From the IMG/VR virus record IMGVR_UViG_3300038701_001599, positions 1 to 64,000 of that record: a stretch of 64,000 bases of DNA; one strand, 5' to 3'. Under the pieces are notes generated by a model. The model was not told the DNA's origin. It did not search any database and worked only from the letters and a program-made list of their open reading frames with translations. Source of the stretch: a virus. Position numbers and translations under genes: made by a program. Shown one piece after another: positions 7,520 through 57,979 of the stretch (position 1 is its first letter; every line of letters begins with the position of its first letter).

Positions 7520-7547
7520 TGAACATTAATCATTAAATCACAAACAA

Positions 7548-22026: not shown

Positions 22027-22057
22027 TTTAATAACAAAGTAAAACTAAAGAAAAAAT

Positions 22058-24223: not shown

Positions 24224-24243
24224 TTATAAAATAAAAATAAATA

Positions 24244-37731: not shown

Positions 37732-40700
37732 TTAATATAACCAATTTAAAGCTTTATATTTTAAGAATTGATTAGCTGAATCTGGATCTCTTAAAGACAT
37801 ACTACCTTTAACACCAGGTATTTGCTTTAATATATATCTTTCCCTTTTACTCATTCCTTTATAAGGGCCTCTCTCTACTTCTTCACTTCCCCAAATTAAA
37901 TCCATAACATCAAGCATTTGTTCTACTTGTTTAGTACCAGCTACTGGACTATTTAATACTGTTAAAAGTTCCATATAAGGTACTGGAGTAGGAGTTAATG
38001 ATAATGCAGAAGTTTCCAACAATACCCTGTTAGATAAATATGCTAACGCTTCTAATTGCCAGTTGTCATCATCATCGTCACTTGCGTTATTTATAATTTT
38101 AGCTACTACTGACATTATGCCTACAGCTATAATTTCTAACATAGCTCTACGAACAGCTTCTTTTTGATAAGGTTCAAATTCATCTAAACTAGTTAATAAC
38201 TTTTTAAGATTTGCTACTCTATTTGGTTCCATTATAGTAGACTTCAGAATATTTAAAAATTCTCTATGGTAGCCTACTTCAATTTCACCTGTCATAAGAT
38301 TAGTACCTTTAGCTTTATATCTTCTAGCAATACCATCAATTAACCAACCTCTATGCGTTGCCACTAATTGTCCCCAAGTAGACTGGTGTATTTTAGCTCT
38401 ATCTAATTGAGTTAAAGTACCATCAGCTTTAGTGGCTAGATTATTTATAGTATAATCTAAATAATTTAAATCTGACTCTTTAACAACATTTTTAAATTCT
38501 TCTTTTACTACTAATTTATGGTTTTTAACTTCCATCATATCATATATAGAAGTTAGTTCTCCATATTTTTCTACTGGGTTTATAGTACCATTTTTAATAG
38601 CTTGGTTAAAATTAGCTTCAGTATAAAACTTGTCTTTATAAAGTTTATAATTAAACATTACTGCCAAAGATATATTAGCTTTCATAGCATAATCAGCCAT
38701 ACCATAGCCAAAATAAACTATATCACTTTTAGTAATTCTTTTTATTTTACTTTTGTCTAAGTCATCAAATATTTCATCAAAAGAATCTACTACTCTAAAA
38801 TATTCTAGCATAACATTTAACTTATTATTCTTATTAATAGATTTAAATTCTTTAATAGCTTCAGGAAGACTAGTAATATACTCTCCCCAAGCTTTTTTCT
38901 TAGCATTTACTGTTGTATACTTACCTACTATATCTTCTATAAAACTATTAGCAACTCCGTTTATATAGCCAGACGCTATAGTAAAAAAGTTAAACATTAA
39001 GTTTACTCCTCTAATATAAGAATTAACTCCATTAGCTAATTTATTAACATTTACTTTTCTATTAATTAAAGGTATAGTAATATCTGCCTGCCCCTGCTTT
39101 TGCTTACCATAAACTTGCATTTCCATAAAAGTTTGTATCATTTTATAAGTATTAGTCTCTACTCCACTTTTTACTACACTGTCTTTTTTATATTTTACTT
39201 TACCAAACTCTTCTTTTACAATCTCTAAATCAGGTGCTATCTTAGACATCTCTTCATAATTATTAGCCATTTGACTATATTTAATTACAGAAGAAACTAA
39301 GTCTGTAGATACATTACCAGGGTTTTCTAACATTTTAGTAAAGTAAATAGGAACATACATCTTAACACTACCGTCTATTCTCTCATCTGGATTACCAAAC
39401 TCATCATCATCTACTCTACTAAATATTTCATCTGATAATAATTCTTTTAAGTTTTCTTTATTTAAATTACCTCCAACAAGTAAGTCATTAAAAGACTTAC
39501 TAATTTGGGGTAACATATAAGCATTTCTAGTACCCACTGGAATTTTATTATCCATTCTTTGTTTAGTATCTAATAATTCTTTAAGAGCTGCTTTTTCATT
39601 AACACTTAATCTATTATAATCTGAATTATTCCATTTAGAACTTGGCTGCATTCCAATCCAAGAGGGGTCATATTTATCATTATAAAATTTAGAATCTTTA
39701 GATAATTCTTTCCATTTTGCTTCTTTAATAATATACTTCTTATGTCTTGGTACTAAATGAGTAGCATAAGAGTAAGGAACAGATTTACCTTTGTAATTAG
39801 CATAATAATGTTTTGCTATGAATTCTTTTATTTTACCATCCCTTCTAGCTTTTTCCTCCATTTCTCTAAATTCAGCAGTAGTTTCTGTAGTAGCATAAAG
39901 TCCAATATTACTCTTCTTTCTATCCTTTTTAACTTGTTTATTCTCATATAATTCATTGGTAATACTTTGAATTTGCTTGTCTATATCTCTAATAATTTCT
40001 AGAGTAGTTTCAGGAACTTTAGAAAGATTAACTTCCATTTTTCCATTCTGAAATGGAGATAAAATTTCTTTCCTTTTCTTTTTTAAATGCTCAATATCAT
40101 CTGATAATTTTTCTCCTTTTTCTAAGTTAGAGATAATATTCCAAAATGCCTTATCATAAACTTCCTCACTATTAGCTTTTAACCAAGCTTCATATTCTTC
40201 TTTAGTATATCTGTCTTTAGCGACTTTTCTCTCTTTTTCAAACTGCTCTTTTTTTACATCAAACTCTCTTTCTTTATTTATTTTTTCATAAAAAGCATTT
40301 AATTCCTTAGCAATTTCTAATTGTTTGCCTTCTTTTTTAGTACCATCTTCATTATATTCTTTAGATAATCTTTTTCTATCTATTTTTAAATCTTCTAGTT
40401 TGCTTAAATCAGTATCAGATAATAAATAATAATCTACATTACCATCTTCTGTTCTTACTTTATTTTCTATATCTTTAATCTGTACATCAATATATAATAA
40501 AGCCTCCCTAGTTTCTAAAGATAAATCATTCTGCATATCATAATAATCTGATGTATATACTCTCTCTGTATTTTCAGATAACCAAGCATTTTTTTCTTTT
40601 CTAAATTCTAGTGCTTTTTTAGGATCATAAGGTTCTCTTTGCCCTTCTTCTAATTTATATTTTTCTTTTAACTTGTCAAAAAATTCATCATATTCTTTAT

Positions 40701-42276
40701 AAAATTCTGCTAGTCTATATTGAGTTAAGAAATAACCTGTTGCTTTACTTCCTTTAGTTTCTACTAATTTAGAAGTATCTACTACACCTAAGTCATTTAT
40801 TACTTTATTTATTAAGTCTTTACCTAAATTTGAAGTATTACGTAGTATTTTTTGTTTTGCTTTAGCAACTAAAGTATATATAGATCTAGCTATAGGGCTA
40901 GATAAATCTCTAATACTACCAAACCAAGATTGTATAACATTAGCATCAATGTTTTGAGTATCAAATAATTCTTCTTTATTAAAGTCTTCTTCTACATTAG
41001 CATCACTATAAATATCAGATATAACATTTTTAGCCATTTCTGAATGTGCGTCTGTATGAAAATCTTCTACATCTTCTAATGCTGATATTAACCCTCTAAT
41101 AATATTATCAATTTCATTTTGTCTCTCTTGAGAATAATTTGTAAATAGAGGAGAATAATTATTTTTCTTTTTAATTTCTCTTAATAATGGCATGTAGTAA
41201 TCAATAAATTCTTTTAATTGACTAATCTTATTACTACTAACTTCTTTATCTCCTTTTCTAATTTCATTAATATATTGATTAGCTATTCTAACATCATCTT
41301 GTACAAAACCTAAAAATAATTCTAGTCCTTGTTCTTCTTCAGCTCTAGCTAATTTTTCTCTTAGTTTAGTAATAGTATCTCCTACCCTTTGAGTAGTACG
41401 TTGAGCAGCTTTTCTTTTTCTTAAAGAAGTAAGTCTAGCTTCTAATCTTTCTATAGCAGCATTTAAAGCCTCCTTTAAGTCTTTTTGCTGTTCTGCAGAG
41501 AAATATATGCCTTCTGTATTAAAGTCCGTTATAGAGCCTCTATTAGTCTTATTTAGCATATCATTAGTAACACTTTCTATATAACTATTTAGTTGCTCTG
41601 CCTTAGCTTTATTAGAGTTAAAAATACTTAATAATTTATTCCAAAGACTTTCTAAAGTTCTAAACATTCTATAAGAAATTCCTTCTTTTTGATTAGTAAT
41701 AATATTATCTGCTACTAATTTACCTAATATTTCTTTTCTAACTTTAGTTTCTATTTGTTCTGATGTAAGTTCAGGATTTAATTCTTTATAACGAGCAGTA
41801 TATCCTTCTACATTTTTTTTATATTGCTCTGTATCTGCTACTAATTCTAAAACTCTGTCTAATTGTCTAGACTTTGGCATAATAGCAACTCCTAAGTGAG
41901 CTGCTTCCTCTACAAAATCATAGTCAGAAGCATTATCTCCTAAAGCAATTACAGAGTTATTTAAATCTATTAAGGCATTAATTCCTTCTGTAGAAAATTC
42001 TTTACCTCTAATTTTTAAACTAGCCATATAGTCTTCTAATGACTTAGTTTCAAACCCCAGCTCATTAACAAATTCATAAATTCTATTTACAATCTTTTGA
42101 TCTAATTTGGGGGGAGATTGCTCTCCCCCCAAATTTAAATCTTCTAAAGTAGGAAAATATTTTACATTATTTTCAGATTGCCATAAAGATACAGTTACTT
42201 CCATTTCAAACTGAGACATCCCAGAATCTTTTACTAATTGCTGAAATTCAGGATTTGAAATATTAACACAATCCAT
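37732..42276 (-). CDS. Large virion-associated protein (1,514 aa) with degenerate zincin-like N-terminal module
   Basis: Uninterrupted 4.5-kb ORF, 1 nt from the upstream gene. Residues 98-127 are paralogous to the HEXXH region of the 4,593-aa protein but read EEAAH. Long coiled-coil-like K/E regions. Confidence 0.6.
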   Translation of the reverse strand: MDCVNISNPEFQQLVKDSGMSQFEMEVTVSLWQSENNVKYFPTLEDLNLGGEQSPPKLDQKIVNRIYEFVNELGFETKSLEDYMASLKIRGKEFSTEGINALIDLNNSVIALGDNASDYDFVEEAAHLGVAIMPKSRQLDRVLELVADTEQYKKNVEGYTARYKELNPELTSEQIETKVRKEILGKLVADNIITNQKEGISYRMFRTLESLWNKLLSIFNSNKAKAEQLNSYIESVTNDMLNKTNRGSITDFNTEGIYFSAEQQKDLKEALNAAIERLEARLTSLRKRKAAQRTTQRVGDTITKLREKLARAEEEQGLELFLGFVQDDVRIANQYINEIRKGDKEVSSNKISQLKEFIDYYMPLLREIKKKNNYSPLFTNYSQERQNEIDNIIRGLISALEDVEDFHTDAHSEMAKNVISDIYSDANVEEDFNKEELFDTQNIDANVIQSWFGSIRDLSSPIARSIYTLVAKAKQKILRNTSNLGKDLINKVINDLGVVDTSKLVETKGSKATGYFLTQYRLAEFYKEYDEFFDKLKEKYKLEEGQREPYDPKKALEFRKEKNAWLSENTERVYTSDYYDMQNDLSLETREALLYIDVQIKDIENKVRTEDGNVDYYLLSDTDLSKLEDLKIDRKRLSKEYNEDGTKKEGKQLEIAKELNAFYEKINKEREFDVKKEQFEKERKVAKDRYTKEEYEAWLKANSEEVYDKAFWNIISNLEKGEKLSDDIEHLKKKRKEILSPFQNGKMEVNLSKVPETTLEIIRDIDKQIQSITNELYENKQVKKDRKKSNIGLYATTETTAEFREMEEKARRDGKIKEFIAKHYYANYKGKSVPYSYATHLVPRHKKYIIKEAKWKELSKDSKFYNDKYDPSWIGMQPSSKWNNSDYNRLSVNEKAALKELLDTKQRMDNKIPVGTRNAYMLPQISKSFNDLLVGGNLNKENLKELLSDEIFSRVDDDEFGNPDERIDGSVKMYVPIYFTKMLENPGNVSTDLVSSVIKYSQMANNYEEMSKIAPDLEIVKEEFGKVKYKKDSVVKSGVETNTYKMIQTFMEMQVYGKQKQGQADITIPLINRKVNVNKLANGVNSYIRGVNLMFNFFTIASGYINGVANSFIEDIVGKYTTVNAKKKAWGEYITSLPEAIKEFKSINKNNKLNVMLEYFRVVDSFDEIFDDLDKSKIKRITKSDIVYFGYGMADYAMKANISLAVMFNYKLYKDKFYTEANFNQAIKNGTINPVEKYGELTSIYDMMEVKNHKLVVKEEFKNVVKESDLNYLDYTINNLATKADGTLTQLDRAKIHQSTWGQLVATHRGWLIDGIARRYKAKGTNLMTGEIEVGYHREFLNILKSTIMEPNRVANLKKLLTSLDEFEPYQKEAVRRAMLEIIAVGIMSVVAKIINNASDDDDDNWQLEALAYLSNRVLLETSALSLTPTPVPYMELLTVLNSPVAGTKQVEQMLDVMDLIWGSEEVERGPYKGMSKRERYILKQIPGVKGSMSLRDPDSANQFLKYKALNWLY

Positions 42277-42277: not shown

Positions 42278-45200
42278 TTAACAGTTTTTTAAATATTGTT
42301 CAAATTCCTCCAAAGTAGTAAACTTTTTCTTTTTAGCTATTATTTCGTATCCTTTTCTAAATTCATCATAAGTCATAGAAGGATTTTTTGCAGTTAACTT
42401 TTCTTTAAAAGTGTCCCAAAGACTTTCTAATTTAGCCTCAACTGACTCTGTAGGTATTTCTGTAGGCACTTTAGTTTCAGAAACTTGGTTTTGTTTAAAA
42501 TTAGTAGACGGTTGTGTACCAAACTCATATTGAGTAAACATCTTTCCACTAGTTAATCCACCTTTCTCTCTTGTTTTATAAGTACCTAAAGCTTCTGTAG
42601 GTGCATAAATAGCAGCTTTATCTCTAGTACTTTTTAAAGTTAATAATACTGTTTCTTTATTTACTGTAGCTTTAATATAATTTACAAATTCTCCGTCTTT
42701 ATTTAAAAATTCATTACTTTCATTTCCTATAACAACATATTGTAATTTATTATTTTCTAATTTAAATGTTCTAATATTAGATTTATTTTCAATATCTGCT
42801 CTAGGTATATAAGCTAAACTTCTAAAATGGTTTCTTACAAACTGATGAAAGAAATGACTAACATATTGAGAGTAGGCTCCAACACCATTATCTTGATCTA
42901 CCTGTATTGCTTCTGCTGCTTTAATCTGATGCTCCATATTTTTATTAAAATCAGGCAAGAAATCAGTATAAAACCCAACAGGTTGCAAATGACTAAAACT
43001 TTGAGGAGATATTCTAAATCCTGCTACCATAAAAGAATACTTAATTAAGTCTTTAGCTAAATCAGAATATTTATAATCTCCTGATAATGCTGTATCATCA
43101 TATAACATACTTTCCCAAGTATCTCTAATTACGTCTACTACTTTTTTATCTTGTCCACTAATACCAGTATAAACAATATAAGTAATATTATTGTTTTTGT
43201 CTACATCTAAATTTAATCTATTTAGTAATGGAGAATATTTATCACTATAATTACTGTTTAAATCTTTAGCAGTACTTAAGTTTTTACTAATAGTAGCTAT
43301 TAAATTCTTATCAAAAGCAAAGAAAGGATCAGTACTTGCTAAATAATCTAAATAGTTTTTATTTATAAACTCAATCTCTTTAACTGTTAAGTTAGTATCT
43401 GCTTTATAGTTATTAAACATTTGTCTTAGTAAATAAAAAGCCCCAGTGTCTCTGTCTGGTAAATATAACTCTCCTTTATTTCTATCACCAATAATTAATT
43501 TTCTACCATTTTCAATAACCCTATTTAAATGATAAGGAAATAAATCAGTACGATTTAATAATTCTTCAGCTCCTTCTAAACCTTCAAAATTGTAGGCTTC
43601 AAGTTGGTCTAATCTATATAAGTTATCAGAGTCACTAGGGCCTAAACCTTGTTCACCTATTTTAACAGCGGTAACTAAATTAGAAATAGGTTTAGATAAC
43701 TTTTTATAAATTAAAAAAGTTTTTAATAACTTAGCAGACGTATCAGAATCTAATTTAGTAGCTACGTTATCTTTTAGAAAATCTGTACTAAACTCAGTTA
43801 TATTACCAGAATTAACATTCTTCTTTCCTATATTAAACTCTTTCTTATTTATTCCTAACTTTAAAGCCGCTTCTTCTTTGGCTAAATTCTCAGCTTTTAC
43901 ATTAGCCCCATTATTAAAATAACTAATGGTAAAATCTTCAATTACTTCTTGTGATAAAAAGTATTGAATAGTATCTAAATCAATTCCAGACAAAGCCATT
44001 CCCATAGCTACATCAATAGTATAACTATTTATATTAGAATACTTAGCTTGTGGGTCTTTTCCGTTATCTACAAATGCTGCAAGAGTTTCTGATATAACTT
44101 TAGTAATTAACTTAGATTTTCCTACTACATATTGTAAGTTTAAGTCTGAATATTCTTTACCATCAAATTTAAAAGGAGTCTTTAATTTAAGAGTAGAAGC
44201 TAATTGAAAAATAGCGTGAGCTGCATTAGCATTAGCACTGACACCAATCAAAGCTTTACCAGTTAAGTTTCTATCTGATATTTCAGCATGGGTACTAGGA
44301 GACATTACATTTACTTTTTCTATAAATTCATCTCCTTCTTTAGTAAACTTTCTTTTACCAGACTCCATTTTAGCCTCATTAATAACATTATTATTTGCTT
44401 TGATAGTATCGAAATTACCAGGAGATAAGAAAGATTTAGTTCCTTTTGTACTTTCTAAAACTGATCTCATTAATTCTAGCTTTCTATTATCTCTAGTTTT
44501 CTTGTTATCTAAAGTATTAGGATTAATCTTTTTATTCTTATGGTCTGCATTATAAAAGAATCCATATACTTTATCAATGTCGAAATCCAAGCCAGCTATA
44601 GTAGTAACTTCAGGTGGAAGTACAATAGTACCACCAGTTTCTTGCGGTAAGAAACCTTTAATTCTTATACTAAAAGTAGAATATTTATCTTCATTAGGAA
44701 TCCTCCAAACTATTCCTCTTAATGCTTTTTCGCTAGCACCTTTTCCATAGTCTTTATCAAACTGTTTCTCATTAAATTTACCATTTTCATCTATATAAGG
44801 ATATAATTTTTTATCATATACAGGCGCATAAGCTTCCATATAATTTAAACTACCGTCTTTATTAAATACTAATTTAGGTTTATCTCTAAAGCCATAAGAG
44901 GACATATTAGCTAATGTAACGCCATTTGTTAACTCTTGCCTTGTTACACCCTTAGTAAATAAAGAATTAAGCATAGACTCGATTCTATACAGGTGTAAAG
45001 GATGCCATAATGGTAGTTTAGTATTTATAACTTCTGTTACATTACCGCCTACATCAGTAACTTGTTCTTTCCAATAATCTAATGCTTGTAAGTATTGATC
45101 TCCTAAATCTCTTTTTATAACTTCTTCTCTTAAAGTATTTATTAAAGAATCAAAGTTATCAAACTTTTTAGAAACTTTAGAATAGCTTTCTTGTATATCT

Positions 45201-48200
45201 TTAATTATTACTTCATTATATTTCTCTAACCATTCTGCACCAGTTATCATGTTACTTGGATTATCTGGATCTCTATAAATTTTGCTATCCATTTCCAAGT
45301 CATTTAACATGTGCTTTCTAACTTGAGTAGCAAATACTACTTTATCATTAACATGGTGAATAGGAGTCTCCATTTGAAGTCTCCAGTCTGAATTATTAAA
45401 TTTATGAGTTTTTGCCTCTTTAATATTATCAGACTCCCCAAATAGTCCTAATTTAATAGCGCTATCAAATACAAATTGATCTGTTAAATTATTATTAGGC
45501 GCTCTTCTTTTTGCTTCAAATTCTTCAATATTATCTATAGTACCATTTTCATTATATCCCATATCTAATAACATCTCTTTAAACTTAGAGTTATAAAAAG
45601 TATTATTAGGATTAGCAAAAGCAGGAATAATTATAGCTTCACTATTTTTATTTTGTACGGGATAAACTTCTTTAGTAGCATCATTATAATGGAACCCAAA
45701 GTAAAATGGCTTATTAACATTAAATAATTCAAGATTTTCCATATCCTGAATATTAAATTCTCCTTTAAGAAGTCTTCTATAAGACTGCTCCTTAGTATTA
45801 CTCCACCTATGTAATCCGTCCTGTTGTTCTTTATATCTAAATAAATCAATATAAGATTGAGCGTCAGTTTCATCTACTCCTTTTTCATAAGGAGCTGCTA
45901 CTTTTTTAGCAACAGACTCATCACCATATAAAGCTAATGCTGCAGCATATATAGCATCATAAGAAGACTCTTTCATATTTTTATCTATAGCATTAGTCTT
46001 TAGAATCTTGGCATTAAAATTAACTCTAGTTTGAGTAGTATCAAGATAAGTACCTGGACTCCATATCTGTTTTGCCCTCTTATAGTAATCCCCTACGTTT
46101 TTATAGTAAGACAAATCACCATTAAATAAACCAGTAAATTGATTTTGGAATAACATAAAATTAGCTACAAAGTGTTCTGCAAATACTTCTACCGGAGTAT
46201 TATTAAGTAAATCATCTTTCCACTCATACTTATCTTTTTCAGAATTATAAGATATAATATTTAATTCTTCCATCTTAGTTCTTTCTGCTATAAGAGTATT
46301 GTTATACTGCTCCTCTACTACTTCAGCTAGTATCTCTCTAATCCTATCTTGATCTTGTTCTAAATCTAGTGATAATAATTCTTTCTTTTTATTCAATCCT
46401 TTAAAAGTTGGAGTATTAGACTCTAATACATCAAAAAATAAGAATTTAGAATTACCATTAGAATCTCTATTTTTACTCTTCTGATTTTTAGTAGTAGTTC
46501 TATCTAAATTAACTCTTACTAATTCTTGATATGCTGCATCATTTAAATAATCTAATATTCCCTTTTGGCCTGTTTCCTTAGTATTTAAATTCTTAATAAC
46601 AGGAATTTCTATAGCAGTCATAGTAGGAGAATCAGCATGTACTGGTAATGGTAAATAAGCTTTATTTCCTACATGGTTAGAATTATAATAAAGCATTAAC
46701 AGATTAATATATAATTGTCTTTCTGACATATTACTATATTCTGTAGGAAGGCTTTCTCCAACCATTTTTATTTCTGATGGTATAGCAAAGTTAATCTCAT
46801 TTGGATTTAAATAATAATCTATATTATTAGGAGTTTCACTATGTCCATTCTTTATAAGATTTAATAAAGGAGAAAACTGATAGTACATATCTTGTTGTAA
46901 AGACTGTATCTTTTTAATACCTGCTACTTTATCTTTTAATTCTAGTATAGTCCTTCCTAAGAAATTAGAATCAAGCCATTCATAAACTTGACCTCCAGTA
47001 GAATTTTTATGTGCATCTTGTACATCATAATCATATCCACTAGATATTTGCTTTACAAAATTTTTAATACCATCGTTACCTTCTTCTATAGGGTCTTTAC
47101 CGTTAGCAATATTTTCAATAAAAGAATAAATAGAGTTAGTTTTATTAGTCATAACTTTTCTAAAGTCTTTATTATTTCTATCATTAGCATATTCTAAAGC
47201 CTCTATAGGAATACTTAAATTAATACTTTGCAAAGCTTCATAGAAAGATTCTAATATATTATCTGGAAGTTTTTTACCAGCATTATTAGAATAATGATTC
47301 TTAATAACTTCTTTTATTTTATTAAACTTAGAATTTACTTCTTTAGCCTTTTCTACATTAGGCTTACCTGTACTAGTAAACAGAGAAGAATTAGTAAATA
47401 ATGATCCTACTAAATTTTCCGTAATTTTATTTACTTTACTTACAGCATTAGTTGGTATTACTTTACTTCTTACCTTACCTCTATCTTTATCTTGTATAGC
47501 AGAAACAAATTTAGGATGTTGCTTCTGTCCAATATGTATCCAAAGTAATCCTAAGAAATCATTATCACTACCATAAGTATCCATTATATATTTAAACATG
47601 GGCTTAGATAAAGCAGCAGTACGTAACTTATTTTCCATATTAAGCCTACTAAAAGAGTTACCTGCTACTTGTTGTACTTGTCTATATACATGGCCTAAGT
47701 TGTAATGCTTATTAAAAGATAAGAATCCTTCAACAGGAGTAACTTCAGTTTTACTAGTATCTGACCATTTAACTACTGGTATTTTATTAAACTCAAATTT
47801 TAATTTCTCTCCTAATTTGTCTAGCTGAGATATAGTAAAAGATAATATTTGCCAAGCTTCTCTCATATCATTTTCTTCTACAAAGTCAGTATTATCTGGC
47901 TCTATCTCAGCCCTTCCAAACTCGTCTTCTTCTAATTTCCTTGTGTCTAAATTAATTATAATACCACGACTACTTAAATTCTTTAAAATATCAAAAGCTA
48001 ATAGCTTAGGTCTTAAACTAATAGTACCATCTTCTTTTTCTACTGGTACAGCTAATGCATTAAGAAAGTCATTAAATTGCTGTGCTGTCTCTTCATCTAA
48101 TATATCTTGAGAATCTAACTCAGCCATTCTATCTAATACTTTATTATATACTGAGTTTTCATTATCTAATGATAATATTAAATTATCAGCTAAATCTTCA

Positions 48201-51200
48201 GCAGTTACTTCTGCTTTACTAGGAAATAATAAATTATTTTTTACTATGTCTTTAATTGGAGTATCAGGATTTTGCTCTCTAAAAGTACTTAATACATCAT
48301 CTAATACAGAAGTCATAGTATCTATAACTCTCTGATATTCAGCAGGATTAGGATATAATGGATGCTTTTTAAACTTAGGTAGTATACTAGAAACATCTCT
48401 TTTAAATTCTTTATTAGCAAATTGTCCCTCATTAATTCTCCAAAATAATTGATCTATTGTAGGTTTATTATTAACTAAAGATTGTATAAACTCTAGTAAA
48501 TTTTTAAATACTCTTTTTATTCTAGAAGGCAGACTAATAGAAGTTTTAGAATTTTTCCACTTTTTAAAGTTTTCAATATCTTGCTTAGTACCTAAACTAT
48601 AAATATTTTCTGAACGAGGAGTAAAGTAGTCTAAGTTACCTATATCCCACTTAGTCTCTGCATTTTTTAATATAGCTAAAGTAATGTTTTTACTAACATC
48701 AGCATTGGCCTCTGTATCTAAAATAGATCTAGAATATTGTTCTGCTAAATCCCTTTTTGCAGTAAAGTAAAAGTTTAAATCTGATGGAGTACCAAATCCT
48801 TCTCCAATAAAAGAACTATCAAATTGTTCAATAACGCCTTCTTTATAACTACCGTGATATAAGATATTAGAAAACTCACTACCTGAAAAATTACTACTTA
48901 AATAATCTAAATATTCAGTAGTAGTTCCAACCTTAGCTAATTCTTCGTTATTTTTAAATAGAAAATTTACTGCGTTTTTATTATGAAAAGAATGAGTCTT
49001 TGTAAATTTATTTTGAGACTTAACATATTCCATAAAATCATCTGCTAATTTTTCTTCTAATACTAAATCTTTAGCTTCTGTTTCTGAAATATCAATACCA
49101 GACTCTTTTACTTGAGCTATCATATCAGAAACTTCTTTAGAACTAACATTATATCTTTTATCTGCTGCCCTTAATATTCTACCTGCCTCCTTTTCAGAAA
49201 GGTACATATTAAATACAGCGTGGAAAGCTTCGTGATAAGTAGTACCAGCTTGAGCAGACTCTAGTAGATGTATAACACCATTATAAAATGCACCATATCC
49301 ATTTATTCCAAACTGCTTTAAAAATGTTAAAGAGTCGTATACTTTATTACTTACATTTGGTAAATTTTCTTTTAACCAAGCTAGTTCTTCTTCTTTATTC
49401 CATACTTCTCTAGGCTTATTTGAATCTACTGTTTTAAATTTAGGAATTTCAACTCCTAGTTTTTCTAATTTATTTGATACATCCCATACATAAGGATCAA
49501 CAGATGTACCTATAGATTCTGGATTAAACTCAGTAGACTCTGAGTCTGGTAATACAAAAATAACAGAGTCAGAATTTAAATTTGGTTCTACAAAGCTTTT
49601 CCAATTTTCAATAGATACACTAACACACCCAAAACTAGCTTTATTGTCTTCTATATTACTTGACTTTAAATTCTTAATAGTGCTCTTAATATTAGGGTGA
49701 AATGCGTTTATAAGACCTCCAGAATTAGTTCCTTCTAGGGCGTAAATATATTCAGACCCGTAATCCGTATTGTCTAACTTACTTAATTTAAAAGTTCCTG
49801 CAGGAGTAATTTTAGGAATTCCTAATTGATTATAATAATTATAAGGATTCTTAAATTTAGCTTTACCTTCTGGTGTTAAATTTTCCCAAGCAATACTTAC
49901 TTTAAATTGTTGATCTCCATAGTTTGCTCCAAAAATACTTGGAAATTCTTTTACTAAATTATTAGAAGAGTCAAATATTAAAACTCTGGCATTGGGTTTA
50001 TCTGCAATAACATAACCAGACTTTAATTCTCCTTTGTTAAAATTGTTTTGCTGTAAAGCATATACTTTTGCAGCATTTCCTGTTAGTGTAAGATTATCTA
50101 CAGATATACTATCTTGATAATTAATAACACCATTAGCAGCTCTAGTAAAAAACTCAGATTTTTCTATTTTAGTATCAGGAGAAATAAATGCAGTATTAGT
50201 AAAATATAAACTAGAAATAACTGCTACGGATAATATAGCTTTAGAAATTTTCTTAATAATGTCTTTAATTTTAGACATGACTCTCTTACCAGTATTATAA
50301 TTTACTACTTGATTAGAAACAAATTTTTCTAAAGTAGAATTATCTTGACTATTTGATACATCCTGTTTAGCTTCTTCATAGGCTTCTTCTAAGGCTATTT
50401 TTTCTTTAGTAAGTAAATTTTCTACTTGCTCTCTAATTTCTTTTAGAGCAGGAACTTTAGGTTCCTGAGGAGTATCTTTTTTAGTAGCTCTCTTCCTACG
50501 CATCATTTCTAAAGGAGATAGTACTTTTCCTTCTACTGGAGATTCTCCTGTTTCAGTTGGCTTACTTTCTATAGTAGTTTCTGGAGTGTTAACTCTCTTT
50601 TTGTTGTCAACTACTTTTGAAACATCAAGTGCCTTATTTACTTCTATTATTTGTTCTTGAGTAGATTGTAAGGGTTGTTGAGTACCTTCTACTGTAGTAG
50701 TACTTACAGAAGGAGTAACTTTACTTAAAATCTTTTCTCTAGTTTTACCACTCTTGAATCTCTCTTTACCTTTAGTAGTTTTACCTAAAGATATGATTCT
50801 ATTATCTGGTAACACATAATAAGAAGTATTAGCATGGTCTACTTTTCTACCAGGGTCATAATCTTTTTTAACTAAATACTTATTAATAGTAGACTCGTCA
50901 GTAACCTCATTACCATTATCGTAGAAGTATTTACCATCTTTTTCAGTAATAATAAATTGCTCTACTTTAATTCCTTTAGTTGTATCTTGGTCTGTAGGTA
51001 CTTGAGTTTCTAAAGAAGCTAATTCTGCATCATATTTAGCGTTAATTTTATTATAAGTAGTTTCTTGTAATATATATTTGCCAGCACTTACACTAATACC
51101 AAACTTTTCTTTTACTAATTCACTTATTTCTTCAAAAGTTTTTCCTACCTTCATTAGTGCTTTAACATAAGATTGCGCTTTCTTAGAATCCTTTCTATCT

Positions 51201-54200
51201 AATTTTTTAACTAAATCATTCCTAATTTCTATCCAGCCTTGTACTCTAAATCCAAGTTCTCCTTCAGGAGTTAACTCAAGTTCTACTAATTCGTCACCTT
51301 TATATTGTTTGTTCGCTTTAGATAATTCTTCTTTCCTTCTTTTTTCTATATCTTTCTTTCTCTGCTCTATATTTTTAGGTACTTCTTTTTTAGCAGCTTC
51401 TTTCTTCTTAGGTTGTTCCTTTTTACGTAGAGTATTTAAATCTACTTGAAACTTAGGAGATGCAAAATTATTTTTAGGAACAAGATCACTTTCTAATCTT
51501 TCATTAGCTACAGTCTCATTATAATTACCTATATTAACTTTTTTATGATCTATCTGTAGTGGCCTATTATCCATGTCATAAAACATATAATAGTTGTAAG
51601 CATAATGTAATTCAATATTGCCTTGTGCCATTGCTTCATTTAAAAACTCTGCACTTGTACTTTCTCCTACTTTATTAAAATTACTATCTAGTTTTTGTAC
51701 TTGCCATTTACCATTTACTTTTTCCGTAAGTTGATAATTAGTATTACTAGTAGTATCTACTAATATCATACCTTCAGTTAAACCTTTTGTAGAATATTCT
51801 ACACCTTCAGAGTTCTTTTGAATAGAAAAATTAGCACCTCCTAATTGAGACTTAAATTGAATCTTACCATCAGCTAATACAACTTTTACTCCTGAATAAA
51901 TATCAGATAAATTATTATCAAAATCTGGAATTAGCTTCTTAACACCTTTTTTATTAACTACATTAAACTTTATAATTTCTGCTGCAGCATCTTTTTTAAA
52001 CTCTCTAATTAAGTTTAATAGTTTATCTCTAAGTCTTGGTACACTTTTTACAGGCTTACTAAATACTCTAATAGGGATTAAATCATTATTAGCATTACGT
52101 ACTAAAACATAAGGTTGTCCTGTAGTAAGTCTTCCTTTTTTAATAGGTTTATCTTTAGCAAACTCTGCTAATTTAGAGTTGGGCGGCTGTAAATTATTTT
52201 CCCTATTATCTTCTACATTAAGATTTAAATGAATGTCATAACTATCAAAGTTACCAGGAATATTATACCCAACTCCAAGTATTAAAGGATTATTATCATT
52301 AATAACACTCTTAGGATTATTTCGTTGACTCTTATCATAAAAAGTGTTAAATCTACCGCCTAGTATTTTCCCTATTTTAGTAGACTTAGAATATCTGAAA
52401 GTCTTAGACTCAGTATTAGGAGTTCTATTATTTGCTATTAATTCATTAAATATCTGTTGTCTTATCTCTTTGTAACTATCTTTTGAGTACTCTTTAACTG
52501 CTGGCATAACTCCAATTACTGTTCTAACTCCATTAGGGTAAATAACATAATCTATTCTAATTCTACCAGACTGTTGAGTAGCATTAAAATTATCTTGAGT
52601 ATCAATTTCTATAAAGACTTCTTCGTCTTTATATTTATATAATTCTTTAACAGCGTCAATATTATAGTCTCTAATTACATTTCCAAAAGTAGATTTAATA
52701 GGGTATCCTTTACTATCTTTTAATGGATAATACTCATTAATTCTAAGCTTTTTAGGAATATGATACTGATTAATACTAGAAGAGTCTACTTTATGATACA
52801 AATAATCTCCATTACCGTCTCTAACTTCTTCTACAGCATCTACAGGAATAAACCCACCTTGAATATGATTTAGGTAAATCCCCCACTGCCCTTTAAATTT
52901 TTGAAATTTAAATAAACCAGTATCATATACTTGAGCATACGATTGGTCTTTACCATCTTCATTTTCAAAGGTTTGTTCTAATTCTTCACTTTCAGAATTG
53001 TTAATTTCTTCAATTTGTGGAACCTGTTCTACTTCGGAAAGTTTTGCTTCTTTCCTAGTCTCATTTTCTACAGACTCATTAAGAATCTGCTTTATAGGTT
53101 TTTCTTTAGGAGTAGTTTGAGTAGTTGCAGGCTCGGGTTCAGCAGGTTCTTCTTGTACAGGTGTATTCTCTGGTACTTTTTCTGGTTGTTTAATACTTAT
53201 TTTTATACCAAAACCATTTTCAGCAACGTATTTTTTTAATTTATTTCTTTCTTTAATATCCTTTTTATAAGAAACATTCTCATCAATAGGAAGACCCAAT
53301 GCTTTGTTTAGTTCAGCAGCAGTAGCATCTAAATATGGAATAGACTTTTTAGGTAACTTTTTACTATTCCATTCTTTATTTAACTTATTAGCCGCTTCCT
53401 CAAGTTTTGACTGTAGTTCAGCGGATGCTTCCGAGTTAAAAGTCCATTGTGTTTTAGCTTTATCTGCCCACCCATCTTTAATAACCCAGTTAGATAATCC
53501 ATAAAAAGGATACCAATTTCCTGCTTGTTTTCCACTAGTTCCTGAAGAACTTCTATAAAAACCGTAAGTTTTACCATCTATATTTACAAAAGTAACTTCT
53601 CTGTCAATTGCATCATTGTCAAATATAGTATACTCTTTACCTTTAATTATTACAGGAACAACTGTTTCTCTTAATGATTTAGGTATAGGTACTGTTGAAG
53701 GTCTTTTAAGTTTTTCTATTAAAGATTCTATGTCTCTTATTTCTTGTTGTATAAGAGGCCCTTGTGATTTTTTTGCAGTAGCTTTCTCATTTTTTAACTT
53801 AACTATTTTAGCTTCTAACTCAGCAATTTCAGCTTTTATATCAGCTTCTCCTTCTGTATTTTTTACATTAGGAGTACTTTTACTTTCTTTTGCTTCGGGT
53901 TTCCCTTTACTCTCTTCCTTAGCTTTCTTTGCGGCTTCTTCTTTTTGTGCTTTAGCAGCTCCTTCTAGAAACTTTTTACCTTTTTCTTCATTAGTAGTCT
54001 CAGTAGTAGAAGCAGGGCCTAATTTAGAAATTAATTCATCCTGAGTGTTTACATTAAACTTTCTTTTTCTAGCAAAAGGCTTGTCTTTGTAGTAGTCTAA
54101 AATAGTATCTACATCCGTAGTTATAGGTTCCTTAGTATTACCAACCTCTGCTTTAGCCTTATTATTTTCAACAGCTTTAAGTATATCTAAAGCTTCTGTA

Positions 54201-56059
54201 TCATTTTTATAAGCATCCTTTTGTACTTCTAGCTGACTAGGAGTTTGTGCTTTAGTAGCTTCTGTTTGAACCTCAGATAATCTTTCTTGTCTAATCTGTT
54301 CTGCTTTTTCTTTTTTAACTTCCTCTCTTTTTTCTTTGCTATTGAACTCTTTAAACTCTTTTCTAGCAGTATCTAAATTGTTTTCAGCAGTTACTACTAA
54401 ATTAGCTAGTCTTTCTATAATAGTATCATTAGAAGTAGGAGTAGGACTACCCTTTTCAGTTTCTTTTAATTGTCTAACTTCTTCTTCATACTTTTTAATT
54501 AAGCTTTCATTTTTAGCCTTCTTAGCTGCTTTAAGCTTCTCTGCTGCACTTTTCTTTTGAGCATTAATATCAGTCTCATATTGAGATAATTGAGAGCTTA
54601 CATCAGATATATATTCTTCATTAAATCTTTGGGCAAATAAGTTTTTAATCTTTTTTTCTTTAACATCAGGATCAGCCTCATTAATAGAATTAGCTATCTG
54701 ATCGTAATAGTCTATATAAGAAATAGCTTTTTGTGAATTTTCAGCCTGCTCTGGAGTAACTCCTTTTGTATTAATAGCATTTTGAAAACTCTTTTTTAAC
54801 ACATCTAATTTACCTTCTTGAGCATGTTGGTTAATAACATCATAAACATGTTGATTATTAACTTCAGCTAGCTTATATTGATTATTATCACTTTGGAATT
54901 TCTGAGCTTTTGTCATTTTACTCTTATAATTATCTGCTATTCTAGTAGCAGCCTTACCTACAGCAGTAAATACAGCACCACCTAAAGCACCTTGTACCAT
55001 AGCTTGCTGCATTTCTGTATCACTAAGCCCATCTAAAAATTCATTAAATATAGTACTATCTTGTTTCTTTTCTCCAAGTCTATAAGCTATTTCATTTTTA
55101 GCCTCTTGAGCTACTGCATATTGATAACCTTCTTCAAAAGCTTCACTGCCCATCTGACCTCCTAAACTAGCAACTCCTTTTAACTTAGAAAACTTACCAG
55201 CAGTTCCTAAAGCATTTAATATACCATTAAATTGCAGCATATCTACTGCTGCTAACATAAAGTTATTAGTATATACTCTAGCAGAAGCATCTCCAGCTAA
55301 CTTCTTAGCTTTTTCTTCACTATGGCCTTTTCTAATTAAATCAGCATAAGTAGAATTAAATGTTTCATAGGCTTCCATACCTCCTTCAATCATTCTAGAG
55401 GTAGCCGCCATTCTAGCAGACTTAGTTAATTGTGCTGCTTTAGAACCACTCTGAATCCATGCTTCAGCATTAGCAATATGCTTACCTACTTGGCCTACTT
55501 TACTAAGTCTACTAGCTAATGCAGGATATGCTAAACCTTCTGTTAAAAATGTAGCTGCTAACATAGCTACTGTAGGGCCAAATTGTGCAATAGTATTAGC
55601 TGTCCACTCTCCATCAAAAGGATTAAACAAAGTTTCTTTACTAGCCTGATCCCTATAAATAGGAGCAGCTTCTTCTCCTACTCCTTTTAGCCAGTTTCCA
55701 GCATCTATAAATATATTATCCATTTCTTCAGAACTTCCAAATACTGGGGCTACTGCTCCTACACCTTCAAATACGTAACCAGGAGTAGCTATAATATCTC
55801 CTACAGTACCAGTTACTAATTGTACAAAAGAGTTTCCAATAGCTTTCCAATTACTTTGTTGCCTTGCTGCATAATCATCTTGGTTTAGTCCATGTACTAA
55901 TCCGTCATCATAATCTGTACTACCAAATAAACCTTTAGTTTCACCTAAAGTTCTAAATTCTCCTATTACATCAGAACCAGGTACATATCCTCCTCCATGA
56001 GATCTACCTATTTTTAAAGTCTTACCTTTACCAGGATTTTTAGACTTATTATCTTTCAT
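42278..56059 (-). CDS. Giant polyvalent virion-cargo protein (4,593 aa): YkuD-like, zincin HEXXH, ART-like and beta-prime-type DPBB RNA polymerase motifs
   Basis: Uninterrupted 13.8-kb ORF. TPAGTF...FHPN...SFGCVSV (Cys2145); YHEAFH (2276-2280); LYHGS..FYFTA..Y (His2402); RIPNEDKYS..IVLPPEVTTIAGLDFDIDKV (Asp3825/3827/3829). Confidence 0.7.
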   Translation of the reverse strand: MKDNKSKNPGKGKTLKIGRSHGGGYVPGSDVIGEFRTLGETKGLFGSTDYDDGLVHGLNQDDYAARQQSNWKAIGNSFVQLVTGTVGDIIATPGYVFEGVGAVAPVFGSSEEMDNIFIDAGNWLKGVGEEAAPIYRDQASKETLFNPFDGEWTANTIAQFGPTVAMLAATFLTEGLAYPALASRLSKVGQVGKHIANAEAWIQSGSKAAQLTKSARMAATSRMIEGGMEAYETFNSTYADLIRKGHSEEKAKKLAGDASARVYTNNFMLAAVDMLQFNGILNALGTAGKFSKLKGVASLGGQMGSEAFEEGYQYAVAQEAKNEIAYRLGEKKQDSTIFNEFLDGLSDTEMQQAMVQGALGGAVFTAVGKAATRIADNYKSKMTKAQKFQSDNNQYKLAEVNNQHVYDVINQHAQEGKLDVLKKSFQNAINTKGVTPEQAENSQKAISYIDYYDQIANSINEADPDVKEKKIKNLFAQRFNEEYISDVSSQLSQYETDINAQKKSAAEKLKAAKKAKNESLIKKYEEEVRQLKETEKGSPTPTSNDTIIERLANLVVTAENNLDTARKEFKEFNSKEKREEVKKEKAEQIRQERLSEVQTEATKAQTPSQLEVQKDAYKNDTEALDILKAVENNKAKAEVGNTKEPITTDVDTILDYYKDKPFARKRKFNVNTQDELISKLGPASTTETTNEEKGKKFLEGAAKAQKEEAAKKAKEESKGKPEAKESKSTPNVKNTEGEADIKAEIAELEAKIVKLKNEKATAKKSQGPLIQQEIRDIESLIEKLKRPSTVPIPKSLRETVVPVIIKGKEYTIFDNDAIDREVTFVNIDGKTYGFYRSSSGTSGKQAGNWYPFYGLSNWVIKDGWADKAKTQWTFNSEASAELQSKLEEAANKLNKEWNSKKLPKKSIPYLDATAAELNKALGLPIDENVSYKKDIKERNKLKKYVAENGFGIKISIKQPEKVPENTPVQEEPAEPEPATTQTTPKEKPIKQILNESVENETRKEAKLSEVEQVPQIEEINNSESEELEQTFENEDGKDQSYAQVYDTGLFKFQKFKGQWGIYLNHIQGGFIPVDAVEEVRDGNGDYLYHKVDSSSINQYHIPKKLRINEYYPLKDSKGYPIKSTFGNVIRDYNIDAVKELYKYKDEEVFIEIDTQDNFNATQQSGRIRIDYVIYPNGVRTVIGVMPAVKEYSKDSYKEIRQQIFNELIANNRTPNTESKTFRYSKSTKIGKILGGRFNTFYDKSQRNNPKSVINDNNPLILGVGYNIPGNFDSYDIHLNLNVEDNRENNLQPPNSKLAEFAKDKPIKKGRLTTGQPYVLVRNANNDLIPIRVFSKPVKSVPRLRDKLLNLIREFKKDAAAEIIKFNVVNKKGVKKLIPDFDNNLSDIYSGVKVVLADGKIQFKSQLGGANFSIQKNSEGVEYSTKGLTEGMILVDTTSNTNYQLTEKVNGKWQVQKLDSNFNKVGESTSAEFLNEAMAQGNIELHYAYNYYMFYDMDNRPLQIDHKKVNIGNYNETVANERLESDLVPKNNFASPKFQVDLNTLRKKEQPKKKEAAKKEVPKNIEQRKKDIEKRRKEELSKANKQYKGDELVELELTPEGELGFRVQGWIEIRNDLVKKLDRKDSKKAQSYVKALMKVGKTFEEISELVKEKFGISVSAGKYILQETTYNKINAKYDAELASLETQVPTDQDTTKGIKVEQFIITEKDGKYFYDNGNEVTDESTINKYLVKKDYDPGRKVDHANTSYYVLPDNRIISLGKTTKGKERFKSGKTREKILSKVTPSVSTTTVEGTQQPLQSTQEQIIEVNKALDVSKVVDNKKRVNTPETTIESKPTETGESPVEGKVLSPLEMMRRKRATKKDTPQEPKVPALKEIREQVENLLTKEKIALEEAYEEAKQDVSNSQDNSTLEKFVSNQVVNYNTGKRVMSKIKDIIKKISKAILSVAVISSLYFTNTAFISPDTKIEKSEFFTRAANGVINYQDSISVDNLTLTGNAAKVYALQQNNFNKGELKSGYVIADKPNARVLIFDSSNNLVKEFPSIFGANYGDQQFKVSIAWENLTPEGKAKFKNPYNYYNQLGIPKITPAGTFKLSKLDNTDYGSEYIYALEGTNSGGLINAFHPNIKSTIKNLKSSNIEDNKASFGCVSVSIENWKSFVEPNLNSDSVIFVLPDSESTEFNPESIGTSVDPYVWDVSNKLEKLGVEIPKFKTVDSNKPREVWNKEEELAWLKENLPNVSNKVYDSLTFLKQFGINGYGAFYNGVIHLLESAQAGTTYHEAFHAVFNMYLSEKEAGRILRAADKRYNVSSKEVSDMIAQVKESGIDISETEAKDLVLEEKLADDFMEYVKSQNKFTKTHSFHNKNAVNFLFKNNEELAKVGTTTEYLDYLSSNFSGSEFSNILYHGSYKEGVIEQFDSSFIGEGFGTPSDLNFYFTAKRDLAEQYSRSILDTEANADVSKNITLAILKNAETKWDIGNLDYFTPRSENIYSLGTKQDIENFKKWKNSKTSISLPSRIKRVFKNLLEFIQSLVNNKPTIDQLFWRINEGQFANKEFKRDVSSILPKFKKHPLYPNPAEYQRVIDTMTSVLDDVLSTFREQNPDTPIKDIVKNNLLFPSKAEVTAEDLADNLILSLDNENSVYNKVLDRMAELDSQDILDEETAQQFNDFLNALAVPVEKEDGTISLRPKLLAFDILKNLSSRGIIINLDTRKLEEDEFGRAEIEPDNTDFVEENDMREAWQILSFTISQLDKLGEKLKFEFNKIPVVKWSDTSKTEVTPVEGFLSFNKHYNLGHVYRQVQQVAGNSFSRLNMENKLRTAALSKPMFKYIMDTYGSDNDFLGLLWIHIGQKQHPKFVSAIQDKDRGKVRSKVIPTNAVSKVNKITENLVGSLFTNSSLFTSTGKPNVEKAKEVNSKFNKIKEVIKNHYSNNAGKKLPDNILESFYEALQSINLSIPIEALEYANDRNNKDFRKVMTNKTNSIYSFIENIANGKDPIEEGNDGIKNFVKQISSGYDYDVQDAHKNSTGGQVYEWLDSNFLGRTILELKDKVAGIKKIQSLQQDMYYQFSPLLNLIKNGHSETPNNIDYYLNPNEINFAIPSEIKMVGESLPTEYSNMSERQLYINLLMLYYNSNHVGNKAYLPLPVHADSPTMTAIEIPVIKNLNTKETGQKGILDYLNDAAYQELVRVNLDRTTTKNQKSKNRDSNGNSKFLFFDVLESNTPTFKGLNKKKELLSLDLEQDQDRIREILAEVVEEQYNNTLIAERTKMEELNIISYNSEKDKYEWKDDLLNNTPVEVFAEHFVANFMLFQNQFTGLFNGDLSYYKNVGDYYKRAKQIWSPGTYLDTTQTRVNFNAKILKTNAIDKNMKESSYDAIYAAALALYGDESVAKKVAAPYEKGVDETDAQSYIDLFRYKEQQDGLHRWSNTKEQSYRRLLKGEFNIQDMENLELFNVNKPFYFGFHYNDATKEVYPVQNKNSEAIIIPAFANPNNTFYNSKFKEMLLDMGYNENGTIDNIEEFEAKRRAPNNNLTDQFVFDSAIKLGLFGESDNIKEAKTHKFNNSDWRLQMETPIHHVNDKVVFATQVRKHMLNDLEMDSKIYRDPDNPSNMITGAEWLEKYNEVIIKDIQESYSKVSKKFDNFDSLINTLREEVIKRDLGDQYLQALDYWKEQVTDVGGNVTEVINTKLPLWHPLHLYRIESMLNSLFTKGVTRQELTNGVTLANMSSYGFRDKPKLVFNKDGSLNYMEAYAPVYDKKLYPYIDENGKFNEKQFDKDYGKGASEKALRGIVWRIPNEDKYSTFSIRIKGFLPQETGGTIVLPPEVTTIAGLDFDIDKVYGFFYNADHKNKKINPNTLDNKKTRDNRKLELMRSVLESTKGTKSFLSPGNFDTIKANNNVINEAKMESGKRKFTKEGDEFIEKVNVMSPSTHAEISDRNLTGKALIGVSANANAAHAIFQLASTLKLKTPFKFDGKEYSDLNLQYVVGKSKLITKVISETLAAFVDNGKDPQAKYSNINSYTIDVAMGMALSGIDLDTIQYFLSQEVIEDFTISYFNNGANVKAENLAKEEAALKLGINKKEFNIGKKNVNSGNITEFSTDFLKDNVATKLDSDTSAKLLKTFLIYKKLSKPISNLVTAVKIGEQGLGPSDSDNLYRLDQLEAYNFEGLEGAEELLNRTDLFPYHLNRVIENGRKLIIGDRNKGELYLPDRDTGAFYLLRQMFNNYKADTNLTVKEIEFINKNYLDYLASTDPFFAFDKNLIATISKNLSTAKDLNSNYSDKYSPLLNRLNLDVDKNNNITYIVYTGISGQDKKVVDVIRDTWESMLYDDTALSGDYKYSDLAKDLIKYSFMVAGFRISPQSFSHLQPVGFYTDFLPDFNKNMEHQIKAAEAIQVDQDNGVGAYSQYVSHFFHQFVRNHFRSLAYIPRADIENKSNIRTFKLENNKLQYVVIGNESNEFLNKDGEFVNYIKATVNKETVLLTLKSTRDKAAIYAPTEALGTYKTREKGGLTSGKMFTQYEFGTQPSTNFKQNQVSETKVPTEIPTESVEAKLESLWDTFKEKLTAKNPSMTYDEFRKGYEIIAKKKKFTTLEEFEQYLKNC

Positions 56060-57977: not shown

Positions 57978-57979
57978 AT

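Follow-up and report, generated by a model that had tools for sequence, protein, structure and literature searches.

A probable two-barrel virion RNA polymerase of the crAss-like type at the C-terminal end of a 4,593-residue phage polyprotein

In a 64,000-nucleotide stretch of viral DNA (IMG/VR record IMGVR_UViG_3300038701_001599, positions 1 to 64,000; hereafter the window), one open reading frame (ORF) of 4,593 codons carries the sequence DFDID, which an original prediction had read as the double-psi beta-barrel (DPBB) catalytic motif of a virion RNA polymerase (RNAP). This motif is very probably the catalytic Mg2+-binding loop of a single-chain, two-barrel crAss-like virion RNAP that makes up the C-terminal ~2,100 residues of a cargo polyprotein. 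The catalytic core, of the type described for gp66 of phage phi14:2, is complete and intact, and it lies within a crassvirus block of muzzle, cargo and transcription genes. The features at the center of this analysis, with residues numbered in amino acids (aa) of the polyprotein, are:

42278..56059, minus strand: giant ORF, a fused virion cargo/RNA polymerase polyprotein with a gp67-like N-terminus, inserts and a gp66-like RNAP (4,593 aa; from the ORF list and BLASTP against phi14:2 g067 and g066)
42281..48592, minus strand: predicted gp66-equivalent RNA polymerase module (aa ~2490-4593; matched by a seven-RNAP profile at E=4.9e-111, with a start near aa 2490 from a weak hhalign match)
44573..44587, minus strand: catalytic DFDID (D3825, D3827 and D3829, the inferred Mg2+ ligands), aligned to gp66 1361-DFDID-1365

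The reading of the motif from the DNA was accurate. Window positions 44567-44704 (minus strand) translate exactly to RIPNEDKYSTFSIRIKGFLPQETGGTIVLPPEVTTIAGLDFDIDKV, quoted earlier as residues 3786-3831, and DFDID (aa 3825-3829, 44573-44587) is in frame with the ORF start. A motif scan finds the pattern D.D.D once in the protein, as DFDID. Given the protein's own composition, bare D.D.D is expected ~1.0 times in 4,593 aa, so that alone it carries no meaning; exact DFDID is expected 0.003 times by the same estimate. The frame itself is not in doubt: the probability of an open frame of 4,593 codons at 30% G+C (29.9% in the window) is ~10^-170, and an identical 4,593-aa protein is encoded on an independent Logan contig (SRR12363488 contig 4749, 24.6 kb; L010), which also carries the same 637-aa and 670-aa genes upstream of the polyprotein.

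What gives the motif its significance is homology to phi14:2 gp66 (PDB 6VR4; Drobysheva et al., bioRxiv 10.1101/2020.03.07.982082 / Nature 2021), and not the comparison with cellular beta-prime from which it was first recognized. In a phmmer search, 6VR4_A was the one real PDB match of the whole ORF (E=6.1e-23), with DFDID falling on DFDID. A profile of the window protein and 22 metagenomic relatives, from which gp66 was excluded, matched 6VR4 in the PDB over chain residues 962-2155 as a single colinear alignment (E=1.6e-121). Similarly, the profile of seven annotated crAss RNAPs matched the ORF colinearly, aa 2710-4533 corresponding to profile positions 235-2279 of 2354, so that a complete gp66 equivalent would fill roughly aa 2490-4593. 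With tblastn, genes labeled 'putative RNA polymerase' were matched in 105 crAss-like phage records at 25-28% identity, and the best phage matches inspected all belong to the Crassvirales, family Steigviridae. Scans of the whole ORF against PHROGs and Pfam returned no RNAP-family match. The window protein shares with gp66 the identical DFDID, the same order of DPBB-B, connector, DPBB-A, bridge helix and trigger loop, and ~1,200 colinear residues, although identity is only 17-24%. Whereas gp66 is the product of a separate gene (2,180 aa), the RNAP of the window is fused to gp67-like, YkuD-like, zincin-type and ART-like parts in a chain of 4,593 aa. PhiCrAss001 gp50 matches the C-terminal module as well (27% identity, E=8e-41; PMC10172136), with DFDVD as its motif in place of DFDID. 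An exhaustive HMMER search of 1.84 billion cluster representatives recovered 1,755 relatives at E<=0.001, of which 530 also pass E<=1e-30; the closest relative (P0002, 3,918 aa) is 48% identical.

The predicted structure agrees with this assignment. AlphaFold2 (AF2) modeling of aa 3270-4200, from a 48-sequence alignment and with no templates, gave a core model with a mean predicted local distance difference test (pLDDT) of 89.2 and a predicted template modeling score (pTM) of 0.88. Foldseek of this model against the PDB placed 6VR4 first (E=4.6e-32, query TM 0.77); eight chains of the RNAP QDE-1 followed from rank 2 (E=1.7e-4 to 5.6e-3, probability ~1), and then came bacterial beta-prime, archaeal and Pol II largest-subunit chains in large number but with weak scores, all at E of at least 0.02. 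The hierarchy of 6VR4, QDE-1 and beta-prime is the one published for gp66 (bioRxiv 10.1101/2020.03.07.982082). Against BFVD there were 58 matches at E<=1e-3, and every named match among the 50 listed is a segment of a giant protein from a crAss-like or related uncultured phage. The region around residues 3780-3840, where a DPBB fold was anticipated, is modeled with high confidence and superposes on 6VR4. The second, beta-like barrel, which the original prediction could not locate by eye, is present at aa 3399-3557. Landmarks were placed by mapping the published gp66 connector (1095-1238), bridge helix (1529-1559) and trigger loop (1598-1636) through the family profile, using also the published domain order DPBB-B, connector, DPBB-A; the barrels were assigned by this mapping together with superposition of the model:

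45389..45865, minus strand: DPBB-B, beta-like double-psi beta-barrel (aa 3399-3557), mapping to gp66 aa 962-1095, directly upstream of the connector
44915..45388, minus strand: connector between the barrels (aa 3558-3715), mapping to gp66 1095-1238 and mostly helical in the AF2 model
44552..44914, minus strand: DPBB-A, beta-prime-like double-psi beta-barrel (aa 3716-3836), mapping to gp66 aa 1238-1372 and identical to it at 41 of the 112 positions aligned
44210..44302, minus strand: bridge helix (aa 3920-3950), mapping to gp66 aa 1529-1559
43994..44110, minus strand: trigger loop (aa 3984-4022), mapping to gp66 aa 1598-1636

Residues conserved across the family, counted in a MAFFT alignment (A2), are kept in each of the catalytic elements. 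In DPBB-B, whose strands and helices are modeled with high confidence, D3399, K3450, K3471, E3474 and K3536 are invariant in 34-40 relatives. R3786, P3788, E3790, P3815 and G3823 are invariant in DPBB-A, where D3825, D3827, D3829 and K3830 are retained in 42-43 of 42-43 relatives. A single long helix of the AF2 model (model residues 652-682, aa 3921-3951) independently fits the bridge helix, in which A3942 and N3943 are conserved in 45 of 46 relatives, and A3994, D3998 and P4003 of the trigger loop are invariant in 46 of 46. Among cellular enzymes, the closest structural parallel is QDE-1 of Neurospora crassa (PDB 2J7N, 7Y7Q-7Y7T), an RNA-interference RNAP that, like the window protein, holds two DPBBs and a similar connector in a single chain and is the second-best structural match of the window model (E=1.7e-4, probability 1.0). 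However, QDE-1 is a eukaryotic, cellular protein with ~9-10% identity to the window protein, no signal at the sequence level, and Gly at position 4 of the motif.

Gene order leads to the same relative. In phi14:2, a minus-strand block runs g068, g067 (1,797 aa), g066 (the RNAP, 2,180 aa) and g065 (1,421 aa), ending where a plus-strand block converges on it. By BLASTP, the window repeats this layout, with g067-like, g066-like and g065-like sequences in the same order at the same block end, and its plus-strand block encodes a family-A DNA polymerase, a DnaB-like helicase, an exonuclease, an RNA ligase and an endolysin. The flanking minus-strand genes are:

37732..42276, minus strand: gp65-like RNAP-associated virion protein gene (1,514 aa), downstream of the polyprotein (BLASTP to g065, E=6e-17; phrog_37651 virion structural protein, E=3e-40)
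56064..59992, minus strand: pair of genes (670 aa and 637 aa) separating the muzzle gene from the polyprotein gene, characterized by position only
59994..63542, minus strand: crassvirus muzzle protein gene, upstream (Pfam PF25731 crAss_MUZ, E=8.4e-28, above cut-off; phrog_15100)

The gp65-like protein has a strong membrane-like helix near aa 1374-1396 by hydropathy. The 670-aa and 637-aa genes gave no family match in PHROGs or Pfam; judged by position only, from the place of g068/g069 in phi14:2 and the crAss001 order muzzle-gp45-gp46-gp47, they would correspond to crassvirus cargo proteins. The phage of the window is assigned to the Crassvirales, as a crassvirus, on the sequences of the muzzle protein and the giant RNAP found here, the window not reaching the capsid, portal and terminase genes. 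Four lines of evidence (sequence, profile, predicted fold and synteny) converge on phi14:2 gp66, and the earlier identification of a crAss-like virion RNAP is thereby upheld.

Upstream of the RNAP, the same chain contains several other parts:

54953..55885, minus strand: gp67-like N-terminal domain (aa 59-369; BLASTP to g067 aa 65-404, E=2.7e-9)
53477..53590, minus strand: short second gp67-like motif (aa 824-861; BLASTP to g067 aa 1398-1440, 51% identity, E=1.5e-8)
50183..50239, minus strand: predicted membrane-spanning helix (aa 1941-1959; Kyte-Doolittle 19-residue mean 1.68, the highest in the protein), directly upstream of the YkuD-like domain
49598..50017, minus strand: YkuD-like (L,D-transpeptidase-fold) domain (aa 2015-2154; Pfam PF03734, with moderate support)
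48905..49462, minus strand: zincin-type metallopeptidase-like region (aa 2200-2385), with HEAFH (aa 2276-2280) at 49220-49234
48560..48907, minus strand: partial ART-PolyVal-like domain (aa 2385-2500; Pfam PF18760)

The gp67-like domain includes two moderately hydrophobic segments by hydropathy (aa 89-107 and 164-182). The short motif at aa 824-861, FYRSSSGTSGKQAGNWYPFYGLSNWVIK, is rich in Gly, Trp and Tyr; it recurs in the relative P0004 and is conserved amid poorly conserved flanks. A hydrophobic stretch similar to the predicted membrane helix can be seen by eye before the YkuD-like domain in P0004, P0006 and P0009. The YkuD-like domain scored 23.6 bits against PF03734 as an isolated domain (cut-off 23.4) and 20.1-20.7 bits in the context of the whole protein; three of four homologous copies match Pfam, and His2121 and Cys2145 (in a Gly-Cys pair) are invariant in the four. 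For the zincin-type region, the H, E and H of the motif and the downstream E2335/E2336 are invariant in alignment A4. This region was also considered as a degenerate gp66 N-terminus and rejected, since hhalign gave only a 33-column match, downstream of the zincin-type region (probability 36%); it is this match that places the start of the RNAP module near aa 2490. The window copy of the ART-PolyVal-like domain reached 25.7 bits, below the 31.2 cut-off, over profile positions 8-48 of 140 only, and five of six homologous copies match PF18760 (best E=2.9e-18); on these sequence scores the domain is family-related and possibly degenerate. The original prediction had spoken of fused cell-wall and protein-modifying modules. 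The Pfam matches and invariant residues make these plausible, but their support is only moderate: profile searches of the PDB with the YkuD-like and ART-like sub-alignments found nothing meaningful, and the AF2 model of aa 1961-2520, spanning the YkuD-like, zincin-type and ART-like parts, was poor (pLDDT 38).

The ART-PolyVal-like domain appears to be mobile in these giant proteins, its place being ahead of the RNAP in some relatives, behind it in others, and doubled in tandem in P0069 (relatives P0069, P0090, P0057 and P0146); one BFVD match to the RNAP core, from phage cr116_1, is itself named 'ART-PolyVal-like domain-containing protein'. The protease-like motif also varies in its position. 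In the window, HExxH precedes the RNAP within one chain, whereas among phi14:2 g065-g069 it is found only in gp65, and a motif scan of the gp65-like protein of the window found no HExxH. From these sequences, it looks as if the protease-like module switched partners as the lineages diverged.

Size and fusion, which the original prediction had singled out as notable, are common in the family and already on record. Among the best 150 of the 1,755 relatives, in which lengths and architectures were counted, the median length is 3,534 aa and the maximum 5,584 aa, with 109 proteins of at least 3,000 aa, 36 of at least 4,000 aa and 10 of at least 4,593 aa. D[FY]D[IV]D is present in nearly all the proteins that reach across the site. 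The motif [YF]HE.FH is present in 93 of the 150, at a median of 1,340 aa upstream of DFDxD (1,550 aa in the window protein), a region similar to the zincin-type one in 114, and a gp67-like domain at the N-terminus in 65. By contrast with these frequent parts, the set of inserts in the window protein (membrane helix with YkuD-like domain, and partial ART) is rarely seen in these 150: the YkuD-like region was picked up by an iterative search in P0009 only, with P0004 and P0006 aligning to it and two of these three proteins matching Pfam YkuD, and the ART-like region occurs in about a dozen of the 150. The window polyprotein falls in the same architecture class as the giant fused RNAPs of other crAss-like phages. 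A fused 'huge polyprotein' in such phages is mentioned in bioRxiv 10.1101/2020.03.07.982082, citing Yutin et al. 2018, and crAss RNAP genes of 'up to ~6000 aa' are described in a review (PMC10136315).

The proposed function follows from what is known of the homologs. gp66 is a virion protein with Mg2+-dependent activity that is abolished by each of three D-to-A substitutions; it prefers single-stranded or denatured DNA, is rifampicin-resistant, and transcribes the early genes, leaving the middle and late ones to host RNAP (bioRxiv 10.1101/2020.03.07.982082). In PhiCrAss001, gp47, gp49 and gp50 were detected in the virion by mass spectrometry and assigned by the authors to the cargo zone of the capsid, from which they propose that cargo proteins are ejected through the tail, partly unfolded (PMC10172136). 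The gp50/gp49/gp47 set is conserved in the window, although these are separate genes in crAss001, with gp47 on the opposite strand. By analogy with phi14:2 and PhiCrAss001, the polyprotein of the window would be made late and packed in the capsid as cargo, probably in a self-inhibited form, and would be extruded partly unfolded via the tail and muzzle, ahead of or together with the DNA. After refolding in the cell, the RNAP module would transcribe the early genes in a rifampicin-resistant manner, with host RNAP taking over afterwards. The three aspartates would bind the catalytic Mg2+ at the interface of the two barrels; given Ile at position 4 of the motif, the loop would have to refold to bind Mg2+ and become active, as argued for gp66 (bioRxiv 10.1101/2020.03.07.982082). 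A further speculation is that the zincin-type domain separates the gp67-like part from the RNAP by cleavage, and that the membrane helix and YkuD-like domain act on the cell wall during entry.

Several observations weigh against assigning the module to a working virion RNAP of this family. Identity to any catalogued phage RNAP does not exceed the 25-28% given above; known RNAPs are matched only weakly by the N-terminal third of the module (aa ~2490-3200; E=3e-14 for this stretch), where neither profile nor hhalign comparisons allow the cleft-blocking element of gp66 (aa 196-233) to be assigned. Sequence comparison detects no similarity to cellular beta-prime, and fold comparison only a weak one (probability 0.1-0.3). 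In addition, we infer the packaging, processing and activity of the window protein by homology throughout, and proteolytic processing by the zincin-type domain is a conjecture, and the AF2 model of that domain is poor.

Other readings accept the RNAP but differ on what the whole chain does. In one, the polyprotein stays uncut and forms a single envelope-spanning ejection machine, in which the envelope holds the gp67-like part and the membrane helix, peptidoglycan in the periplasm is the target of the YkuD-like domain, and the tethered C-terminal RNAP transcribes the entering DNA and thereby helps to pull it in. This is consistent with the single frame shared by the modules, whose order fits an envelope-spanning topology, with the membrane-like helix directly before the YkuD-like domain, and with the fused form being the majority state among relatives. 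Precedents exist in other phages. The virion RNAP (vRNAP) of N4-like phages is a T7-like, single-subunit, right-hand polymerase and not a two-barrel enzyme; it is analogous to the window RNAP but not homologous. The vRNAPs of the Schitoviridae (N4-like), of ~3,500 aa, are packaged in the virion and injected to transcribe early genes, as proposed for the window RNAP, and the N4 ejectosome is a precedent for a virion RNAP within a giant injection protein (PMC13434306). Thermus phage P23-45 is the other precedent: its gp96 is a tape-measure fusion RNAP, a virion two-barrel enzyme within a giant injected protein (5,002 aa), as in the window (bioRxiv 10.1101/2022.12.01.518664). The P23-45 RNAP is N-terminal, however, with a flat architecture that lacks a clamp; it belongs to a different lineage and is not among the Foldseek matches listed. 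Against an uncut machine, phi14:2, crAss001 and many relatives encode the parts in separate genes, which means that a covalent link is dispensable; where the parts are fused, cleavage is what the phi14:2 authors expect (bioRxiv 10.1101/2020.03.07.982082); and a conserved zincin-type motif lies just upstream of the RNAP. We regard this reading as unlikely. A bolder version allows the protein to remain covalently intact, or to be cut only after injection by its own zincin-type domain, and to act as an all-in-one entry machine in which an envelope anchor and a periplasm-facing, peptidoglycan-remodeling YkuD fold are combined with a tethered RNAP that couples early transcription to DNA entry. It is also unlikely; if true, it would represent a new use of the YkuD fold in phage entry.

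The divergence that weighs against a working virion RNAP could also mean that the module is a relic without catalytic activity that survives only as bulky cargo of the capsid or in a structural role, and disrupted RNAP ORFs have been reported in the Zeta group of crAss-like phages (PMC7886860). However, the frame of the window protein is uninterrupted over its whole length, every family-invariant residue is kept in both barrels, the bridge helix and the trigger loop, and the AF2 model is of high confidence; loss of activity is very improbable.

The relationship to cellular beta-prime, on which the motif was first recognized, holds only at the level of fold and is weakly matched even there. The E. 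coli peptide quoted for comparison is genuine RpoC 425-466, which contains NADFDGDQM, and the spacing I.L.P.V......DFD.D is identical in RpoC and the window protein; further upstream, the 'one 4-residue insertion' once described is an offset of five residues followed by a one-residue compensation, a trivial slip. The two peptides align with a local score of 33 (z=4.4), reached by 1 of 2,000 shuffles. By itself, the match is suggestive, not significant, at the level of these sequences: the pairing with the RpoC motif does not appear in whole-protein BLASTP at E<40, comparison of the ORF with E. coli RpoC and RpoB by BLASTP produced no alignment that was significant or in the right place, and no beta-prime or beta chain appeared at E<=10 in HMM searches of PDB sequences. 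Foldseek matches of the AF2 core model to beta-prime/Rpb1 chains are likewise weak (E=0.02-0.2, probability 0.1-0.3). The R.P, F.P, L.P and DFD.D positions paired with beta-prime are nonetheless family-conserved positions in alignment A2, an overlap that fits a real, very distant relationship, and gp66 is structurally related to Thermus thermophilus RNAP (bioRxiv 10.1101/2020.03.07.982082). Calling the motif 'beta-prime-type' holds for the fold, the DPBB of cellular beta-prime being predicted for the window module too, but not for the family, which is gp66/QDE-1-like. In cellular RNAPs, the barrels are on two subunits and the motif is DFDGD, whereas the window protein has one chain and DFDID, and Gly had been found at position 4 in all RNAPs studied before gp66 (bioRxiv 10.1101/2020.03.07.982082). 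Membership in the beta-prime family is not borne out, position 4 being Ile and sequence homology undetectable. A recent capture of a cellular beta-prime (or beta/beta-prime) fragment, which would place the module within the multisubunit RNAP family proper, would accommodate the local pattern shared with RpoC 425-466 and the weak Foldseek matches; it is contradicted by the failed PDB and BLASTP comparisons, by Ile at position 4, and by the presence of both barrels in one chain with a connector of the QDE-1/gp66 type, and is barely credible. Finally, although one bare D.D.D would be expected in a protein this long, DFDID as a chance match in a large structural protein is ruled out by the 0.003 expectation and by colinearity with a solved RNAP over ~1,200 residues.

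Elsewhere in the window, the family-A DNA polymerase gene is split over 6272-9356 (plus strand), and from its sequence looks like an intron- or homing-endonuclease-interrupted polA of the kind reported for crAss-like phages:

6272-7456, plus strand: polA part 1, 3'-5' exonuclease and PolA profile positions 28-160 (profile match)
7548-8336, plus strand: LAGLIDADG homing endonuclease between the polA parts (PF14528, E=2e-13)
8499-9356, plus strand: polA part 2, PolA profile positions 163-380 (profile match)

Three tRNA genes precede it. The anticodons of the Leu and Arg tRNAs read A-ending codons, which fits a genome of 30% G+C:

1329-1415, plus strand: tRNA Leu(taa)
1511-1585, plus strand: tRNA Arg(tct)
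2161-2235, plus strand: tRNA Met(cat)

A cluster of amide-bond-forming and glutamine-using enzymes occupies 18555-25866 (plus strand), and is possibly a peptide or metabolite modification pathway:

18555-19430, plus strand: Peptidase_C26/GATase
19764-20588, plus strand: phiEco32-like COOH-NH2 ligase
21184-22026, plus strand: ATP-grasp protein
22058-24223, plus strand: GATase_6 protein (721 aa)
24244-25866, plus strand: amidoligase-type protein

The endolysin and RNA ligase of the plus-strand block are located as follows:

28941-29759, plus strand: Amidase_3 endolysin (E=1.5e-25)
36018-37049, plus strand: RNA ligase (phrog_548, E=4e-61)

Overall, the finding is a divergent member of a well-characterized family, and DFDID is already a known hallmark of crAss-like phages. 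Because the family, its motif, its structure, its location in the virion and its giant fused polyproteins have all been published, the wider importance is small. The modest value lies in a very divergent member, no more than 28% identical to any catalogued phage RNAP and 48% identical to the nearest metagenomic cluster, and in the annotation, where both catalytic barrels now have precise coordinates, as do the connector, bridge helix and trigger loop. The finding confirms that the 64-kb window comes from a crAss-like phage, whose early-transcription enzyme, probably injected, would be encoded by the giant ORF, and the fusion partners of the RNAP could guide experiments on how crassviruses process their cargo and cross the cell envelope.

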